A stretch of 25,799 nt of DNA. Source: a virus. Lineage: Duplodnaviria > Caudoviricetes. The notes beneath the pieces were generated by a model, which did not search any database, was not told the DNA's origin, and saw only the letters and a list, made by a program, of their open reading frames with translations. The stretch is taken from positions 1 to 25,799 of IMG/VR virus record IMGVR_UViG_3300024219_000016, one strand, 5' to 3'. The translations under genes were made by a program, and so were the position numbers. Position 1 is the first letter of the stretch. Every line of letters begins with the position of its first letter. This document shows positions 13,059 to 21,321 of this stretch, one piece after another.

Positions 13059-14300
13059 TTAACCCCACACTCTGCACGCGAGACGTGCCTGAAGAGTGGC
13101 CGCGCCGATCAGAATGTCCATGCGATTCGGATTCTGGTCGGTGCCAATCTGATACTGCTCGACATACCGGATCGAGATGCCGAGTGTTTTGTCCTGCACC
13201 GCATAGCTATTCGCGCCAGCGCCAGGCTTCTTCAAGTCAGCCATGACGAAGGCGAAGGCGTCAGGGTGATACACGAAGGACTGCCGCGAAGTCGTCGCCA
13301 CGAGCGTGCCAGCCGTCTTCGATGATGCACCGAGCACCGTGATGCCAGCACCAGAGGCGGGCGAAGCGTCTACGGTCTGCAACTGGCCAGAGGTGATGAT
13401 GCTGGGAGAAATCGGCAGAGCGGTCATATTGCCTGAGCTGTCCGAAGTCGTTGCGGTGACCACGAACTGCTGGAGTCTACCGTTGCTGGCATAGGACAGC
13501 GGATTCACGCTGTTGACGCCATCGAGCACGATGATGTCGCCCTTGTTCAGCGTGGTGGAACCCGAGGCCCATGCCTGCGTGTTCAGCGTCGAGCCGGTCT
13601 GGTTCGCGCCGTTCACGGTCGGAGTCGCCGTGCTGGTCCATGATCCCGTGGTGTGCGTCGGCGTGACCGGATCCTGATACCACTCACTGATCCCGAGGTT
13701 CATCCCCGAGAACTGGCCTTCCTTCCAAATCTGACTCACGACACCCTGTGGGTTGAAGTTCGTCGTCGTCGTATTGGAGATGGTCTGCATCGCCAGCGGA
13801 TCGAGACAGGCCACGCGCCCCTTGAGAGGAGTGGCAAGGTCCGTCAGTTTGGTGCCCGCCTGCAGATAGGTCAACGTCGCATTGGGAGTCGTGCCGGGCG
13901 TTCCGACCGACGAGTAGATGTCGCGATACACCGCCTGGAAAGCCAGGACTTCCGATGCACTCGCGAGCGCTTCTGCGGCGGGTTTGGTATACCTCTCGCG
14001 GATGAACTGAATCTCAGTCGTCGCCTGAGCGCTCGAGTAGGATGTGGCGACGTTCTTCTGATTCGTCAGCGTGATCGGAACCGTCTGGTCGAAAATATTC
14101 TGGACCTGCAGTGCCTGACCATCTGTGACAGTGAAGCGCTGTGGCAGACGCGCATTGACGGTGTTCCCTACGACGGCGCCAGCCTGCATATACTGGTCGT
14201 CATAGGTCCGGTTGACGTTCGACAGGAACGTCAGATCATTGAGATAGCCGCGAGCAGTGTCCTTGGTGACCCATGATGGGGTCGCAAGTGTATTCGGCAT
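13059..14300 (-). CDS. Major capsid protein, P22 coat (gp5) family
   Basis: 413 aa; NVNRTYDDQY...VGNTVNARLP, insertion domain GDIIVLDGVNSVNP...LQQFVVTA, YHPDAFAFVMADL, RMDILIG...ACRVWG. Confidence 0.92.
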   Translation of the reverse strand: MPNTLATPSWVTKDTARGYLNDLTFLSNVNRTYDDQYMQAGAVVGNTVNARLPQRFTVTDGQALQVQNIFDQTVPITLTNQKNVATSYSSAQATTEIQFIRERYTKPAAEALASASEVLAFQAVYRDIYSSVGTPGTTPNATLTYLQAGTKLTDLATPLKGRVACLDPLAMQTISNTTTTNFNPQGVVSQIWKEGQFSGMNLGISEWYQDPVTPTHTTGSWTSTATPTVNGANQTGSTLNTQAWASGSTTLNKGDIIVLDGVNSVNPLSYASNGRLQQFVVTATTSDSSGNMTALPISPSIITSGQLQTVDASPASGAGITVLGASSKTAGTLVATTSRQSFVYHPDAFAFVMADLKKPGAGANSYAVQDKTLGISIRYVEQYQIGTDQNPNRMDILIGAATLQARLACRVWG

Positions 14301-14312
14301 TCGGGACTCGCA

Positions 14313-15260
14313 TTAGCGCACTCCTCGCTTACCTTCGGCTTTGTTTTCCCTCACATAGAACGAGGAAAAGGGTTCATCATCGCCGGGTTCAGGAGAAGTC
14401 GCTACGGGCGAAGTCCCTAGTGGCTGGATAGGGGGTTTCGCAGAACTCACAACGGGCGGTTTACGCTGAGCCACAGGGGCAGCAGTAGACCGCGCAGACA
14501 GTTTGCCAACGATTTCCCCGATTCGTCCAATCTGATCGATTGGGTGCAGGCTGAGGAGTGCCTGAGCTTCCGAGAGATTCTGCGAGAGGTATTCCGCGAT
14601 TTCCGGCCCTTGTTTGTGGTTCTGCAGGAAGGGCCAGACGCGCTGATCGATGGGTGTCTGACTGAGCAGCTGATCGATGTCTGGCACACGCTGGCGGATC
14701 TCTGCGAGTTTCCCGCCCCATGTCTGTCCTATGCTCGCCTGATGTGCCTGTGCGGCGGCGGCATCAGACTGGCGTCTGAACTCTTGCCGCGCTTCCCAAG
14801 CTGCTGAGGCTCTGACCCAAGTGCTATACGGATCAGGATTGGGCTGGCCATCCGGCAGCTTCATGAAGTCGTTCAGCGAGGGTTCGCGGTCCTCCGTAGG
14901 TGCCGCCTGTGGGGTTGGTCGCTGTGGCGGCTGTGGCCGCTGGACCTGTTCCCTCTCAGACCGAAGTTTCGCGAGTTCGGCGCGTTCGGCTTCAAGTTCT
15001 CGCTGCGTCTGATGTTTCTGAGCGGCGAGTGCATCGATTTCCTGTCGGTAGGTGAGTTTGCGGCCTTCTTTGCCGTATTTATCGGCCCTTGGCTTTTCAA
15101 CGGTTGCGGCTGGGGCAGGTTCGCCTTCAGGTTCCGGTTCTGGTTCCGGTTCTGGCTCTGGTGATTCGCCGCGCTCGATCGCATTCTCACGCGCAACGAA
15201 GTCGCTCAGCGACTCTTCGACTTCAGCAGCGGGCGATTCGACAATCGGTTCGTCGGCCAC
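14313..15260 (-). CDS. Scaffolding protein
   Basis: Acidic/Pro-rich N-terminus, coiled coil, EPSLNDF, GPEIAEYL, SSAKPPIQPL; immediately upstream of coat. Confidence 0.82.
   Translation of the reverse strand: MADEPIVESPAAEVEESLSDFVARENAIERGESPEPEPEPEPEPEGEPAPAATVEKPRADKYGKEGRKLTYRQEIDALAAQKHQTQRELEAERAELAKLRSEREQVQRPQPPQRPTPQAAPTEDREPSLNDFMKLPDGQPNPDPYSTWVRASAAWEARQEFRRQSDAAAAQAHQASIGQTWGGKLAEIRQRVPDIDQLLSQTPIDQRVWPFLQNHKQGPEIAEYLSQNLSEAQALLSLHPIDQIGRIGEIVGKLSARSTAAPVAQRKPPVVSSAKPPIQPLGTSPVATSPEPGDDEPFSSFYVRENKAEGKRGVR
15128..15163 (-). repeat. (Glu-Pro)n 6-nt microrepeat in scaffold
   Basis: caggttccggttctggttccggttctggctctgg encodes PEPEPEPEPEPE. Confidence 0.8.
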
Positions 15261-15800: not shown

Positions 15801-16019
15801 TCAATCCCGTTCTGGCCAATGCCAAGTGCCTTCTCCAAATTCGGCATCATGCAGGATCCCGAAGGCCCGAAACATCGAATCCCTGTCAAAGACGGTCAAG
15901 TCGATCCCCACGCCTAATTCGACCTTCGTCACCAGTGCGGCCAAGTGCTCTTTGGACCCATCAGGGACGTAATGGACGATTCGACCGACGCTCGCCTTCT
16001 GGACTGGCGTATCGCTCAT
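15801..16019 (-). CDS. Conserved small phage protein (SVGRIVHY...WxWP)
   Basis: SVGRIVHYV...AALVTKV...LTVF...WHWPER; ATGA overlap with portal stop. Confidence 0.7.
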   Translation of the reverse strand: MSDTPVQKASVGRIVHYVPDGSKEHLAALVTKVELGVGIDLTVFDRDSMFRAFGILHDAEFGEGTWHWPERD

Positions 16020-18388
16020 TGACCGGCTCCTGCTGGTTCTGGCTGTGGGGCTTGTGCCGCTTCTAGCATCGACTGGGACGCATCATTGGCGGCGCCCTGT
16101 TGTGCCTGTGCGACCGCTTGGACATGCGCCTGATCGGCCTGAGCCAATTGCGCCTGATGGTCACCAGACGCCATTGTCGCGGCGTGTGCGCGGTCTAGTG
16201 CGGCTTGCTGGTTCTCGTTCCCCTGAATGCCGAGTCTGGCCCGTTCTTCAAGGAACAGTGAGAGCCGATCGACTTTCGCGCCGAGTTCCGCGACAGCCAG
16301 TTTCGTTTCATTGTTCTCGCGGTTCCGCTGCGTGTCGGCCATCTCCTGCATAGCCGTGACTTTGAGTTTGCCGGCCTGCTCGACTTGCTTCGTTTGGATG
16401 ATTTGTCCAGCCGATTGAAGTTGCTGCTTGAGTTGCTGATTCTCTGCCTGCAGTTTTGCCGCTGCCGATGCGGCATCCTGCTGCGATTGGCTCGAGAGCC
16501 ACGGCATCGTATGATTGCGGTTTTTCTCAAGCAAGTCTGCAACAGGTTCAGCCCACGGCTCGCCACGCTGTCGGAAGTATTCTGGTCCTATCACTTGCAT
16601 CAATTGCGGATCCGCCTGGAGGATGATCGACATCTCTCCGACCGCTTCATCGCGCTTGTCTTTGTAGGACTTACCGATCGTCACTTCGATCCCGTAGCGG
16701 CCTTTGGTCAGGTCGTAATGCTTCGCTCCGGTCTGTGGATTAGAGAGTAGCGCATCGGCTTGCGCCTTCTCCTGATCGGTTTCATAGGGGAGCGCTTGCG
16801 GACGGCCATTTGGTCCCATCACGAAGGGATGATTGAGCATCACCCATGAGGAGACACCTTTGTCATCAAGAATCTTCGCGATACGCTGCGGGCGATCATA
16901 AATCTTCGGAATCAGATCGAGGATGATCATCGCCTCATAGGTCATCGTGATCGAGGCGAAGTTATCGATGTAGGGACTGTTCGCACTGATGGTCTGACCC
17001 TGCAAGGCTTCGATCGCTTTACCTGATCGATGGGCGGGCGTCTGCTCACCACGCGCCGGCCCATACGTAGCCATTGCTGTGGCTACGAAATCCTTGCCCA
17101 TCGTGAGCAATTGCATCGATGGACCGAGGCGGCTCATGTCCACCTGATTGCGTTGCGGTGGAGGCGCTGGACGACCAGAGATGTCGGTGGGCTTATATTC
17201 GAGATAGGGAAAATCCCTGGTATTGGCCATCCCCCATTCAGGATGCCCTTCAAAAACGCCTTCGACGCCAATGAACGGGGCACGCGGCTCCAGCGCGGCC
17301 ATCCGCACGGCATTCGTGGCCGCGTAGTTTGTCAGGCGGATCGCGCCTTTCGCGTTCCCGATCATGCCGAGCCAGGAACGTGTCCCATTCGTGACTTGCA
17401 ATTCACGTCCGATCGCGCTGGGGAATGGAATGTATTGCCCATCCCATTCCACTTCTGGCTCAAGCACCTCGAGGTAGTTGATCACGCGCCTGAACACATG
17501 ACGCTCATTAACCGTGACCGTCCGCGCATCGTCGCCAGTCTTCTTCGTGCGACCTTCTGGCATCTCTTCGTCATCGAAGGCCATCGAATGGTCATCAAGG
17601 AGTGACTTGGTGCGCTCGTTCGTTTCGACTCGCCATTCTTCGCAGACCGTGACGCAGCGATTCTCGTTCGTGCCCTTGCTCAGCCACTTGTTCGCATCGT
17701 TAAGCTCAGAATCGAATGTCTCGTCCGTGAACTTCCCGACACGCGATTTTGGATACTTCTTTTTGTAGGCCGCGAAGGACATCGGCACAGCGATTTGCAA
17801 CCGCGTGCCATCAGACCAATCCGGCTGTTGCGCGTAGGGATCGCGCTTCACCGTGGACTGATCCAAGATGCGCTCGATCATCAATTTCTGATCGAGGTCA
17901 TGTCCTCCGTATTGGTCAAAGACTTTGTTGATGCGATATGAACCACGTCCGCACCACAATGCTCGTTCATACGCCCACCCGCGCCCGATGTCCGCTCGAG
18001 AGTCGCGTTCGATATTCCGATAGAGCCCCTGCAGAATCTGCGCGGTTTCATCGCTCGCATCATCGCTGATGGGATGGATGCGAACGGCCATGTGCGCCTG
18101 TCTGAATTGCGCTACTTGCAGGAGGATCGGTTCATCGGCTGAGGCGACCGAGAGCATGGGCCGAGCTGGAACCGGAACGCTTGAAGGATTCTGCTGAGAG
18201 TTAGCTGGGATCGCGGCAAACTGCCCTTTGACTTCTGCAGGCCATGCGCCTTCAGCATGCTGGAATTGCAGCGCTTCTTGCTCTTGCTGGTCTTGATCGT
18301 GTTCGGTATCACAGACGAAGTGATACCAATCGACTGACGTTTGGATCGAGTCATCGGCTGTTACTTCATCGCCGTTGTCGTCAATCAT
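16016..18388 (-). CDS. Portal protein, P22 gp1 family
   Basis: 790 aa; WPAEVK...RPML, AQILQGLYRNIERDS, WDGQYIPF, SGKAIEALQ, IPKIYDRPQRI, GRYGIEVTIGKSY; long Gln/Ala C-terminal helix. Confidence 0.9.
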   Translation of the reverse strand: MIDDNGDEVTADDSIQTSVDWYHFVCDTEHDQDQQEQEALQFQHAEGAWPAEVKGQFAAIPANSQQNPSSVPVPARPMLSVASADEPILLQVAQFRQAHMAVRIHPISDDASDETAQILQGLYRNIERDSRADIGRGWAYERALWCGRGSYRINKVFDQYGGHDLDQKLMIERILDQSTVKRDPYAQQPDWSDGTRLQIAVPMSFAAYKKKYPKSRVGKFTDETFDSELNDANKWLSKGTNENRCVTVCEEWRVETNERTKSLLDDHSMAFDDEEMPEGRTKKTGDDARTVTVNERHVFRRVINYLEVLEPEVEWDGQYIPFPSAIGRELQVTNGTRSWLGMIGNAKGAIRLTNYAATNAVRMAALEPRAPFIGVEGVFEGHPEWGMANTRDFPYLEYKPTDISGRPAPPPQRNQVDMSRLGPSMQLLTMGKDFVATAMATYGPARGEQTPAHRSGKAIEALQGQTISANSPYIDNFASITMTYEAMIILDLIPKIYDRPQRIAKILDDKGVSSWVMLNHPFVMGPNGRPQALPYETDQEKAQADALLSNPQTGAKHYDLTKGRYGIEVTIGKSYKDKRDEAVGEMSIILQADPQLMQVIGPEYFRQRGEPWAEPVADLLEKNRNHTMPWLSSQSQQDAASAAAKLQAENQQLKQQLQSAGQIIQTKQVEQAGKLKVTAMQEMADTQRNRENNETKLAVAELGAKVDRLSLFLEERARLGIQGNENQQAALDRAHAATMASGDHQAQLAQADQAHVQAVAQAQQGAANDASQSMLEAAQAPQPEPAGAGQ

Positions 18389-18659
18389 GTTGGCAGCATT
18401 CCCAAGGCGAGTGGATTTCTGAGGTCGTCAATCATCCGCAACTTTGCACGGAGCAATTTCCTCATGTCATCCACGCTCATCGCTAAATCAGTCGCGGCTA
18501 TGTGAATTTCCGCAATGCCGTAATCATCGCCATGTATCCATTTGCGCGGTGCTCATCTCCGTAATCAAATACAATGAATACCTCGCTGGCAATCCGCAAG
18601 TTCAAGGCGATTCTCAGACATTCCTTCACGCACCAGCTTGGCGTAAGCATCGGGCTCAC
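18385..18659 (-). pseudogene. Frameshifted ~91-aa gene resembling coat N-terminal segments
   Basis: Frame 1 starts at a GTGA overlap (18659): MLTPSWCVKECLRIALNL, stop 18498. The -1 frame (open below 18553) reads IAATDLAMSVDDMRKLL and stops at an ATGA overlap with the portal start. Span 275 nt = 3n+2. Confidence 0.5.
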
Positions 18660-18922
18660 TTGGCCAGTTCCTTCGCATAAAAGGCCATCATCTTCTCATG
18701 CGGCACGACATCAGCCGCCCACGACGGATCCAGATGGTTCGGATCTTCGCGATCCGCTCGCGCTCGCCAGTCGTACGCTTCCTGCAGCGCGGCTCGCGCC
18801 AGTTCTGGATTCCCTGGCACGGTCGCGATCACTGCCCCCTGTGCGGATTTGCGAGGAATGTTCTGCTGATAGGCGAGATGCGCCGTGCGCGACGAACTGA
18901 GGTAATCCGAGATGGCGCTCAT
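18656..18922 (-). CDS. Hypothetical protein
   Basis: 88 aa, coupled by overlaps at both ends. Confidence 0.6.
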   Translation of the reverse strand: MSAISDYLSSSRTAHLAYQQNIPRKSAQGAVIATVPGNPELARAALQEAYDWRARADREDPNHLDPSWAADVVPHEKMMAFYAKELAK

Positions 18923-19170
18923 CGGCCCTGAAACAGCCAGCGAAGGCGGTCACGGAAGCTGCGGGCGCCCCATGCGGTGAACGACGCCTGATGAACGGCG
19001 ATCTGCTTGGCGTGCTCATCGAGCCGCACTGACATATCCGCGATGACCTCGCCTTGAGCCTTCACCTTTGCGGCATGTTCACCGAGAATGCTGAACGTCG
19101 TCTCCTGAAACTTCGCCCGCGAAATCTCCTGCCAACGGAATCCGCCGTTTGACGTAGGCTGATGTCTCAT
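18919..19170 (-). CDS. Small coiled-coil protein with amphipathic C-terminus
   Basis: Start MRHQ at an ATGA overlap; ends RSFRDRLRWLFQGR. Confidence 0.6.
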   Translation of the reverse strand: MRHQPTSNGGFRWQEISRAKFQETTFSILGEHAAKVKAQGEVIADMSVRLDEHAKQIAVHQASFTAWGARSFRDRLRWLFQGR

Positions 19171-19610
19171 ACCATCCTTGACTGTCGCCGTTCGCGAGGT
19201 GGTAACCATGCTCCACACCCATGCGGCTTGACCGTGCGACCATCAATGAACCTTCCGGTGCTTTTTCCTGTCACTGTCTGATATGGGCCTTCAGTGATCA
19301 GTTTTGGAAAGATGCTCTCTATCGTCAGGACTTCTCCGCCTTGAATATCGGCGGTCACTACGAACTGCTGAAGTTGGCTCGTGGCTTTATACGTTCTTGG
19401 ATTTAAAGCGTAATAGCCTTCAATCGTGAAAATGTCGCCTGTTACCAGAGAGCCATAAAGTGGCTCAATCGTTGGAGGAGAAGGCAGGAAGATCGTTCTC
19501 TCGCCTGGATTCCAGAGCAGACGTTCCACATCGATCGCGCCTGTGGCGGCTGCGGCAGCGGCTACCGTTCCGAAACCGAGGCGACGAAGGAATGTGCGCC
19601 TATCCAGCAT
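19167..19610 (-). CDS. Twin-arginine-signal protein carrying a coat insertion-domain homolog
   Basis: N-terminus MLDRRTFLRRLGFGTVAAAAAATGA; the middle aligns with the coat segment at 13371-13550 (GDI, NP, LQQFVVTA, ITxG, QTV). Confidence 0.8.
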   Translation of the reverse strand: MLDRRTFLRRLGFGTVAAAAAATGAIDVERLLWNPGERTIFLPSPPTIEPLYGSLVTGDIFTIEGYYALNPRTYKATSQLQQFVVTADIQGGEVLTIESIFPKLITEGPYQTVTGKSTGRFIDGRTVKPHGCGAWLPPRERRQSRMV

Positions 19611-19636: not shown

Positions 19637-19645
19637 AATATAGCA
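19637..19645 (-). promoter_or_regulatory. Possible extended -10 promoter (TGcTATATT)
   Basis: In the 38-nt gap ahead of the twin-arginine gene; no recognisable -35. Confidence 0.35.
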
Positions 19646-19648
19646 CAG

Positions 19649-19873
19649 TCACCACCGTTGTTTGTATTCTCCGCACCATTCTGCGGCTTTCACATCTGGC
19701 CAAATCGGATCGGCATAGTCGTATCGCGTCGTGGCTATCATGGCCATAGCGATTGGAGCATTGCGACGACACTTGCCTGGAGCATGGAGTGCTGGAGCAC
19801 TGTCCGGATGTTGCTCAGCCCACCACTTGCATGATCCGCACTTGAATTGAAATTCCACACTGGCATAGGTCAT
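19649..19873 (-). CDS. Four-Cys small phage protein (CxxC...CRR...WCGE)
   Basis: CGSCKWW...GKCRRNAP...WPDV...WCGEY; ATGA overlap with terL stop. Confidence 0.7.
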   Translation of the reverse strand: MTYASVEFQFKCGSCKWWAEQHPDSAPALHAPGKCRRNAPIAMAMIATTRYDYADPIWPDVKAAEWCGEYKQRW

Positions 19874-21321
19874 TGCCACATCCATGCATTCGGTGAGTAA
19901 TCGTCTATTGGCTGCTGATGGCTAGCGGCCTTCCGTTGGTCCTGCTCTGATTGCGTCGATTGGCCGGCACAGAAGTTCAGTTCAACATTCTCAATCGCAT
20001 GCATCACATTCGCGAACTTGTCATCTTCTGCTGGCTGTCGTAGTTCTTTGTTCGCCACTGAGACGAAGTGTGGATCCCACACGTAGCCGCCTTCAAAGGC
20101 GTGATGCACGAACGGTGATTCTCGATGCTCATCTCGAGCGGCAATGATGAATCGTTGCGGATTAGTCTCCACACCGATCGATTCCTCGCCTCCGGCATTT
20201 CGCCGACGCAGATAGGCCGAGATGTTCTCGATCATCGCTAGACGCACATCAGGAGAGTTCCCATTGTCCCGGCATTGCGCGGTGAAGCCATGCCGTCGAA
20301 GGATGTCCAGAGGCGTATAGCGTCTGCTCAGCGTTTGTTGCTGCTCACCCATTGGGGCTGTGCATGTTTTGAAGATGGCTGATTTTGGGAACCAGTCTTG
20401 ACGGCACTGCTTCACAAGCGGAAGGAAGTCCTCAAGGATGAGCGATTCTCCGATCATGCCTCCGAGAATCGCAAGCCCTCCGCTATGCATGACTTGAGCG
20501 CAGACCCATACCGGCGTGTGCTTGCCAAACTCAAAAGATTCAAGAATCGGTAACCGCTCTGAATAGGTAATTGACCGCCAGTGAATCGCCTTCTGATAGA
20601 GCCCATCGTAGACAGGCACACCCGTGATGTTGGGTCCGCGCTGGCCCATGATCATGGTCAGGTGCTTCGGATGGTCACTCGGATACTGCCTGAGCAGCGA
20701 TTCAATGCTCTCCTGCGGAAGATGCTTGTTGTCGAAGACGGAGATGGAATGCACTTTCCGTCCCTTGATCCGATCCCCATAGGGGAACTCACGCGATAGC
20801 CAGAACTCATAGTCTGACGGATTCGCGACGAAGGTGAGTTGAAACGGATACCGATCGTTGCGGAGTGTCGCTGTGAGATTCGGTCTGAGCCGGCCACGCA
20901 GTTCAGCAGCTACGGAGGGGCGCACTTCCTCGACCTGATCACCCATGATGCGCGAGACGCCAAGGCCGCGAATCTTGTTGTATTCCTCGATCAGTGAGTT
21001 CGCCTTGAGCCCAAAGACATAGGCGCTGGAGCCGTTCGGTAGGACATAGCGCTTCTCTTTGGCTTCCCACGACGTTTGCACACCGCGAATCGCGCACAGT
21101 TCATCGAAGGCGACTCGCAGTTTTGTCGTTGTCGCATCTTCGGTCCATCGAAAGAGCAGGATGGGAATGCCTGGATACTTCAGGAGCGCTTCGATCTCCT
21201 TGTCGAGTGCCAGTGTCGTCTTCGCGCAGTTCAGACTTCCCTCAATAAGCAGCTCAGGAGTCCTCCAATCTGCGCGAATCCGCTGATGGATAGGCATGCC
21301 TTCCCAGTCAAGTTCAGCCAC
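19870..21321 (-). CDS. terL: Terminase large subunit (variant motifs)
   Basis: 483 aa upstream of portal; Walker A-like GSLNCAKTT, Walker B-like IMGDQVEE, ELRGRLR, motif III ANP, DNKHLP, C-terminal RNase H-like layout. AGGAG upstream of GTG. Confidence 0.85.
   Translation of the reverse strand: MAELDWEGMPIHQRIRADWRTPELLIEGSLNCAKTTLALDKEIEALLKYPGIPILLFRWTEDATTTKLRVAFDELCAIRGVQTSWEAKEKRYVLPNGSSAYVFGLKANSLIEEYNKIRGLGVSRIMGDQVEEVRPSVAAELRGRLRPNLTATLRNDRYPFQLTFVANPSDYEFWLSREFPYGDRIKGRKVHSISVFDNKHLPQESIESLLRQYPSDHPKHLTMIMGQRGPNITGVPVYDGLYQKAIHWRSITYSERLPILESFEFGKHTPVWVCAQVMHSGGLAILGGMIGESLILEDFLPLVKQCRQDWFPKSAIFKTCTAPMGEQQQTLSRRYTPLDILRRHGFTAQCRDNGNSPDVRLAMIENISAYLRRRNAGGEESIGVETNPQRFIIAARDEHRESPFVHHAFEGGYVWDPHFVSVANKELRQPAEDDKFANVMHAIENVELNFCAGQSTQSEQDQRKAASHQQPIDDYSPNAWMWQ

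Follow-up and report, generated by a model that had tools for sequence, protein, structure and literature searches.

A twin-arginine leader fused to fragments of head proteins in phages, a possible bait for host capsid sensors

Why should a phage place a fragment of a coat protein behind an export signal? The question is raised by a small gene in a 25,799-nucleotide stretch of DNA (the window; IMG/VR record IMGVR_UViG_3300024219_000016, Duplodnaviria, Caudoviricetes), a virus record that CheckV estimates to be 65% complete and that carries a P22-type head module on its minus strand. An open reading frame for a protein of 147 aa (P0001) lies between the terminase and the portal, and a first-pass annotation had described it as a twin-arginine signal peptide fused to a stand-alone copy of the insertion domain (I-domain) of the coat. 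The frame at 19167-19610 proved to be real, and its strand, left unstated in that annotation, is the minus strand; a plus-strand reading was ruled out, as stops close the frame. A Pfam search with P0001 gave nothing at E<=0.1. The features of the locus are listed below.

19167..19610, minus strand: P0001 gene, encoding the leader and capsid-fragment protein (147-aa frame; about 30 relatives with the leader and the same piece; purifying selection relative to the near-twin phage L112)
19587..19601, minus strand: twin-arginine motif R-R-T-F-L, residues 4-8 of P0001 (invariance of R4 and R5; TIGR01409)
19533..19580, minus strand: h-region, residues 11-26 of P0001, uncharged and Gly/Ala-rich
19482..19532, minus strand: family signature D-[VIL]-E-[RK]-L-L-W-x-P...P, residues 27-43 of P0001 (D27, L31, L32 and W33 invariant)
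19260..19457, minus strand: payload, residues 52-117 of P0001, C-terminal part of a P22-type coat I-domain (sequence, profile and fold matches)
19637..19645, minus strand: candidate extended -10 promoter element, TG-n-hexamer, 5/6 to consensus, 26 nt 5' of the ATG
18919..19170, minus strand: next gene, 83 aa, its ATG overlapping the P0001 stop (also behind the leader gene in L112 and L087)
19870..21321, minus strand: terminase large subunit, upstream landmark (PF04466, E 7e-4, below the cut-off; phrog_3717, E 0.0085)
16016..18388, minus strand: P22-like portal, downstream landmark (PF16510, E 2e-82)
14313-15260, minus strand: scaffold gene, part of the P22-type head module
13059-14300, minus strand: coat gene (PF11651, E 3.5e-29)
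13359..13559, minus strand: coat-gene segment homologous to the payload, coat residues 248-314 (alignment and hhalign)

Residues 1-43 of P0001 form a conserved twin-arginine leader that starts with D-R-R-T-F-L. Both this motif and the Ala-rich h-region were present as annotated, the latter as an uncharged stretch of 16 residues that is weakly hydrophobic (best 19-residue Kyte-Doolittle mean 1.18). The Tat motif was recognized by TIGR01409 at 18.3 bits (cut-off 16.7), and 14 of 18 leader proteins reached or exceeded this cut-off; PF10518 gave no match for P0001, and the relatives P0105 and P0111 passed it. The arginine pair was conserved in the homologues: R4 and R5, together with D27, L31, L32 and W33, were invariant in 33/33 leaders (alignment A3). 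The pattern RR-x-[FMLI] occurred in 150/150 of the best matches to a profile that itself includes the motif, RR-x-F lay within the first 16 residues in 124 of 126 leader proteins and further in for the other two, and all 20 loci found through the downstream motif alone carried an RR-x-F-L-type motif. TatFind-like rules ask for an uncharged h-region of 13 or more residues; motif and length together were passed by 107/124, and some leaders in the family have an uncharged stretch of only 9-12 residues. A-x-A sites do not discriminate for signal peptidase cleavage here, because several occur in the Ala run of P0001.

The leader thus resembles Tat signal peptides (TIGR01409/PF10518) in having RR-x-F-L near the N-terminus and an uncharged, weakly hydrophobic stretch, and differs from them in being phage-encoded, in being followed by the invariant D-x-E-x-L-L-W-x-P motif and in carrying a virion-protein fragment instead of a folded enzyme. 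The uncleaved Tat anchors of Rieske proteins (PF25471, TM_PetC) share the RR, the Gly/Ala/Thr stretch and the proline-rich linker, but the matches to TM_PetC were weak and far below its cut-off (P0003, E 0.23; P0043, E 0.08). No transmembrane-grade helix was found after the RR in P0001 (best hydropathy 1.18, TM_PetC below cut-off); unlike in Rieske anchors, the h-region falls short of a transmembrane helix in both length and hydrophobicity, and no cofactor domain is present. Judging from these motifs, the leader would be used by the Tat pathway.

The payload showed the likeness to the coat of the window that had been claimed for it. P0001 54-113 (19272-19451) aligned with coat 250-310 (13371-13553) at 27/63 identities (43%; E 9e-11), and hhalign of the P0001 family against the coat family placed P0001 52-117 on coat 248-314 with a probability of 99.5 (E 1.3e-22). 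In the LQQFVVTA block 4/8 codons differ, all at synonymous third positions, which the first-pass annotation had taken as a sign of selection; this block alone proves little, because it was picked for being identical. The coat segment was rightly placed within the I-domain, as coat 247-324 matched residues 39-117 of 6MNT, an I-domain chain of CUS-3 with 126 residues. The P0001 family profile matched only 6MNT 35-107, which is 253-325 of the full CUS-3 coat (E 4e-4). An AlphaFold2 model of P0001 (32 sequences) had a mean pLDDT of 66 and a pTM of 0.43. It showed no barrel, and the region of the 60-69/76-84 hairpin was the only one to approach or exceed pLDDT 80. With partial coverage of the I-domain and no barrel in the model, the payload is therefore not a stand-alone copy. 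Foldseek gave nothing at E<=0.001 for this model; its top match was 6MNT over 42 columns (E 0.11), followed by the P22 coat, and the nearest model in the ESM Atlas was a PF11651 cluster (TM 0.50).

The I-domain is described as a six-stranded barrel with a D-loop and an S-loop (PMC5701804), and in P22 it is given as residues 222-345 with the D-loop at 239-254 and the S-loop at 277-292 (PMC9965877). A complete barrel with both loops was not found in P0001, as judged from the 6MNT coverage and the single confident hairpin, and neither was an insertion in the A-domain of an HK97-fold coat, P0001 being a 147-aa protein. Its relatives are also short: the best 150 leader matches have 56-239 aa, and in a search that allowed lengths up to 2000 aa none of the best 120 exceeds 238 aa. 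If the CUS-3 and P22 numbering are roughly alike, the payload would begin after the D-loop and hold the S-loop hairpin, and the first I-domain strands and the D-loop appear to be missing from P0001; these domain boundaries rest on sequence matches to 6MNT. Compared with the P22-type I-domain (PF11651; CUS-3 6MNT and 8SKG; P22 gp5 222-345), the payload is alike in sequence, profile and top fold match, and differs in comprising about 65-75 of about 120 residues, in lying outside any HK97 fold and in forming one separate lineage. Window coat residues 222-303 (13392-13637) also matched phrog_1302, labelled distal tail protein (E 7e-6), and the same was seen in G006, hinting that the I-domain barrel may be shared with a tail protein.

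How far the fusion extends beyond this locus was seen from searches with the whole protein and with the leader. A first search at the protein level yielded 43 proteins out of 215 candidates; about 30 of the 43 combine the leader with the I-domain piece, the others having the same leader on other coat segments. A leader-only profile of 33 rows gave 423 proteins among 7999 candidates, and 3124 clusters (50% identity) at E<=1e-3 or 433 at E<=1e-10; the weaker clusters may include ordinary bacterial Tat signals, and the best 150 were examined. GenBank phages gave no match to the leader, the 103 pattern matches in GTDB genomes came down to two loci that were both judged spurious on translation, and an initial viral scan mostly brought up ordinary coat genes. 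At E<1e-3, 99/126 payloads matched a profile built from 69 P22-type coats (reversed sequences, 3/126). Of 1000 small ORFs taken as a control, 7 did so, and the best-scoring ones were leader genes or a cut coat. Of the 150 representatives, chosen on the leader alone, the P22-type coat profile picked up 79 (reversed, 1). The 71 left over included 13 with matches to other capsids (9), portals (3) or a terminase (1; reversed, 0/71). In all, 92 of the best 150 had a detectable head-protein piece against one reversed. For 58/150 payloads no head match was detected, and a further look gave weak hints only. Another 60 payloads, unassigned or derived from loci, yielded 26 hits with E<0.005 (reversed, 0), which fell on coats, on one portal and on one adaptor-like gene.

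The I-domain is among the pieces fused to the leader, but it does not define the family, since coat, portal, terminase and adaptor pieces stand in its place elsewhere. The 102 payload clusters comprised pieces of the coat N-arm (36), the I-domain (25, a share inflated by the P0001 seed), the C-terminal strands (6) and the spine (3), spliced pieces (5) and payloads with no coat match (27). Coat residues 141-240 were found in 0/75 clusters with a coat match and in 1/79 of the leader-picked representatives, and windows of held-out coats from 141-240 were mostly detectable. As the same leader carries such differing head pieces, the general function of the family is unlikely to depend on a folded domain of the capsid surface. 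Examples of the leader on pieces of a portal, an adaptor-like protein and a terminase are L113:410-685, L140:9992-10312 and P0178. Five payloads (P0031, P0034, P0037, P0095 and P0123) join two or three coat segments that lie far apart, keep them in the order of the coat and resemble internally deleted coats.

Thirteen carrier records were taken whole, and each of their 14 leader genes was compared with the 49-264 ORFs of its own genome. The own capsid was the top match for 10/14 (E 2e-12 to 0.22; G003 and G004 are near-twins), and for 1/14 the top match was an adaptor-like gene (phrog_12985), whose member in the window has a sub-cut-off match to SU10_adaptor. The remaining 3/14 had no match in their own genome, one of them in a genome with its capsid gene in pieces. 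The matched carriers have four capsid families, namely phrog_283, phrog_212, phrog_9953 and a protein of 439 aa for which its position, together with a language-model hit on a cluster with 10% SU10_MCP, makes a capsid likely. G006, L094, L106 and L133 each carried a pair of leader genes whose pieces differ, and no second leader gene was found in the L112 locus. The leader gene lay 5' of the portal or just after the terminase in 12/14 placeable loci (three near-copies) and on the strand opposite the capsid in 7/13 whole records, and it was absent from 47/47 other P22-type loci in which over 600 nt precede the portal. Tyrosine integrase and serine recombinase were sought and found in 0/5 complete carriers; none was found in the 65%-complete window record, and 2/14 records have a tyrosine integrase. 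Two capsid genes in these genomes are interrupted. In L174:6437-8079 (G013) the gene lies in two pieces about 760 nt apart, possibly because of an intron, and at L112:15408-16146 an insert of 740 nt, which opens with a stop, breaks the coat gene some 33 codons in; this insert holds an HNH-like, cysteine-rich ORF (labelled by eye) and looks like a self-splicing intron. Rfam searches of the window, L112 and L174 gave 0 matches.

In the window itself, the 83-aa gene at 18919..19170 is probably co-translated with P0001. Its candidacy as a partner was rejected, as a motif-bearing neighbor was found at 5/30 leader loci and 2/40 controls (P 0.13). The 83-aa protein has an amphipathic tail of the R-L-R-W-L type, and similar tails occur near the portals of several P22-type loci with or without a leader gene. 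Upstream of the leader gene, 19649-19885 encodes a cysteine-rich protein of 78 aa. G009 has a related one, and the version in run X2 shows 27 differences; L112 has an unrelated ORF in its place, and the position is a variable slot. The 268 nt that precede the portal (18389-18655) are missing in L112 and skipped by one contig of run X2. The candidate extended -10 element lies inside 35 nt that are identical in L112 despite the different upstream ORF there, and a similar element is present in L087; most other loci that were read lack it, so an own promoter as a general trait of the family was ruled out. A two-hexamer promoter scan gave 0 sites. When contigs of two runs were compared, the allele of the window was intact in a second soil run and its flanks were variant. 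One 151-nt contig was identical to the L112 payload, which is too thin to show coexisting alleles.

The history of the payload was investigated with a quick tree of 34 I-domain payloads and 65 coats, which had few columns (71) and long branches. The payloads and all 65 coats lay on opposite sides of one branch (SH-aLRT 99), which points to an old capture. A recent copy of the own coat was rejected, as the own coat ranked 62/65 in likeness to the payload; the coats used for profile and tree had been chosen for their resemblance to the P0001 payload. Selection on the protein, proposed in the first-pass annotation, was borne out: payload pN was significantly below pS in 13/15 pairs, which are non-independent and in several cases saturated, and the unsaturated pairs L117-L118 (dN 0.09, dS 0.46) and L102-L103 (dN 0.16, dS 0.58) agree. 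L104, which is the window itself, and L135-L137, which are not family members, were excluded from the counts. L112 is identical to the window at 95% in the terminase, 97% in the portal, 99% in the coat (pN, 3 of 846 sites) and 90% in the leader, and at 58% in the payload (dN 0.37, dS 1.39). The dS values of the leader (0.22), terminase (0.49), portal (0.63) and coat (0.27) all lie below this payload value and suggest that the payload was exchanged by recombination. Of 26 conserved payload columns, 20 share the majority residue of the coat (Spearman 0.49, P 3e-5). Mean column conservation was 0.86 in the leader and 0.54 in the payload, three A1 rows without an I-domain piece being excluded from this comparison; the tail beyond residue 117 of P0001 is poorly conserved, and GC3 is 0.47 in the payload and 0.74 in the coat. 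By these sequence comparisons the payload appears to have been captured long ago, to be under purifying selection and to change much more rapidly than the coat does.

What, then, may be the use of a fusion that recurs across a family, is kept by purifying selection, turns over its pieces fast and is present in patches? Our leading explanation, to which we give a probability of about 0.4, is that P0001 is a Tat-targeted bait for host proteins that recognize capsids. A host protein able to recognize phage head proteins would be caught by the capsid-like piece, and the leader would hold the bound protein at the Tat translocase or drag it from the cytoplasm. This presumes that the piece binds something, that the prey would be a defence sensor and that the leader gene would be expressed apart from the late operon. 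A bait is favored because it fits a fixed leader, swappable yet selected pieces of the phage's own head, fast turnover and patchy presence. Many head-protein pieces occur on one leader, with the own capsid the best match in 10/14; the payload diverges from L112 in an arms-race-like manner beside a 99% identical coat and keeps coat-conserved residues; and the gene is optional and often on the strand opposite the capsid. Bacterial sensors are reported to detect capsid, portal and portal adaptor (PMC13581612; PMC13728456), and in published accounts of Avs7/8/10/11/12, CapRel-SJ46 and S. aureus Thoeris the sensed protein classes are the classes copied by the payloads. A capsid variant is reported to bind the Thoeris sensor without activating it (PMC12578639), and small unfolded cargo to be tolerated by Tat (PMC13673990). 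The co-export of partners that have no signal of their own, as described for E. coli PaoABC, in which a signal-bearing protein carries a bound partner across the membrane (PMC4273604), is a likeness as well; the partners there are folded subunits of one enzyme, whereas the partner of P0001 is hypothetical. The phage inhibitors Tad3-6 and Nip differ, in their published descriptions, in that their targets are signals or defence enzymes; they do not copy the trigger, and they lack an export leader. Against a bait, the bound part in three known Avs capsid sensors is reported to be the A-domain core, with variable extensions unbound (PMC13581612), and the payloads nearly avoid the A-domain region (coat 141-240), the I-domain piece being a variable extension. 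Exposed hydrophobic cargo is reported to abort Tat transport (PMC13673990), and the captured N-arm and spine segments correspond to scaffold-binding sites of P22 (PMC9965877), which suits a role in assembly too. Moreover, 58/150 payloads have no head match, the promoter candidate is present in few loci, and a bait could also trigger the sensor. We know of no sensor for the I-domain hairpin. The wider proposal, that uncultured soil phages share a modular bait-and-export system in which a fixed Tat leader with swappable capsid, portal, terminase or adaptor pieces removes pattern-recognition proteins via the host Tat, is rather doubtful.

Such an assembly role would mean that the payload imitates an interface used in assembly and attaches to coat, scaffold or other head intermediates, which the leader takes to the membrane. 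These could be those of a co-infecting relative, amounting to interference, or those of the own phage, for timing, removal of free monomers or membrane tethering. The hot spots of the payload clusters agree with this, as the N-arm and R101 of P22 are reported to bind scaffolding protein and the S-loop to affect capsid size (PMC9965877, PMC5701804), and so do the own-family payloads and the placement near portal and terminase. However, the payload has drifted far from a coat that itself hardly changes, the I-domain payloads branch apart from all 65 coats, the D-loop that makes the I-domain contacts (PMC9965877) appears to be missing, a carrier would itself suffer from a poison against its own type of capsid, and the gene is optional; we regard this role as unlikely. 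The procapsid tether of the first-pass annotation, as an obligatory function, is weakened by the 47/47 P22-type loci without a leader gene and the opposite capsid strand in 7/13. It is still less probable that the leader is the working part and occupies or stalls the Tat translocase or stresses the membrane, the capsid pieces being poorly folded plugs from nearby genes. The better conserved leader, the interchangeable payloads, the largely unfolded model predicted for P0001, the payloads without a head match and the report that with unfolded, hydrophobic cargo Tat transport stops at a late stage and growth becomes slower (PMC13673990) would all suit a plug; purifying selection on the payloads, their coat-conserved residues, their origin from few coat segments though others are detectable, and the two leader genes with different pieces in several phages, needless for a plug, would not. 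The function first proposed for P0001, a folded I-domain outside the cytoplasm that mimics the capsid surface and blocks superinfection, has the Tat motif, the I-domain homology and the tyrosine integrase of two records in its favor. We consider it very improbable, because the domain is partial with no barrel predicted, most relatives carry other pieces, many of them not from the outer surface, and capsid I-domains are not known to bind host receptors; superinfection exclusion by a lysogen in particular is weakened by the five complete carriers, none of which has an integrase of either searched family. A functionless duplicate decaying after chance recombination could account for the low payload GC3, the poorly conserved tail and the varied lengths, but frames kept open in some 30 relatives, a dN much lower than dS in both leader and payload, an invariant motif and hundreds of clusters largely refute it, and we give it next to no credence.

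Our literature search, which covered few subscription papers, returned no account of phage Tat leaders fused to virion fragments, and the phage passages of a 2026 Tat review (PMC13673990) name no such substrate. The leader proteins are apparently an undescribed, selected class of phage protein with no known counterpart, and hundreds of clusters labelled hypothetical have the same architecture. It is short and modular, and it can be tested in E. coli. If an assembly role or jamming of Tat were true, this would be the first use of the Tat pathway by a phage, as far as the literature was searched. If P0001 is a bait, it would represent a new kind of counter-defence, in which the trigger is copied and host export disposes of the sensor, and each payload would be a probe with which unknown capsid sensors could be fished. 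If the bait-and-export system is real, the payload catalogue would map the virion epitopes that soil bacteria sense, the I-domain hairpin included.
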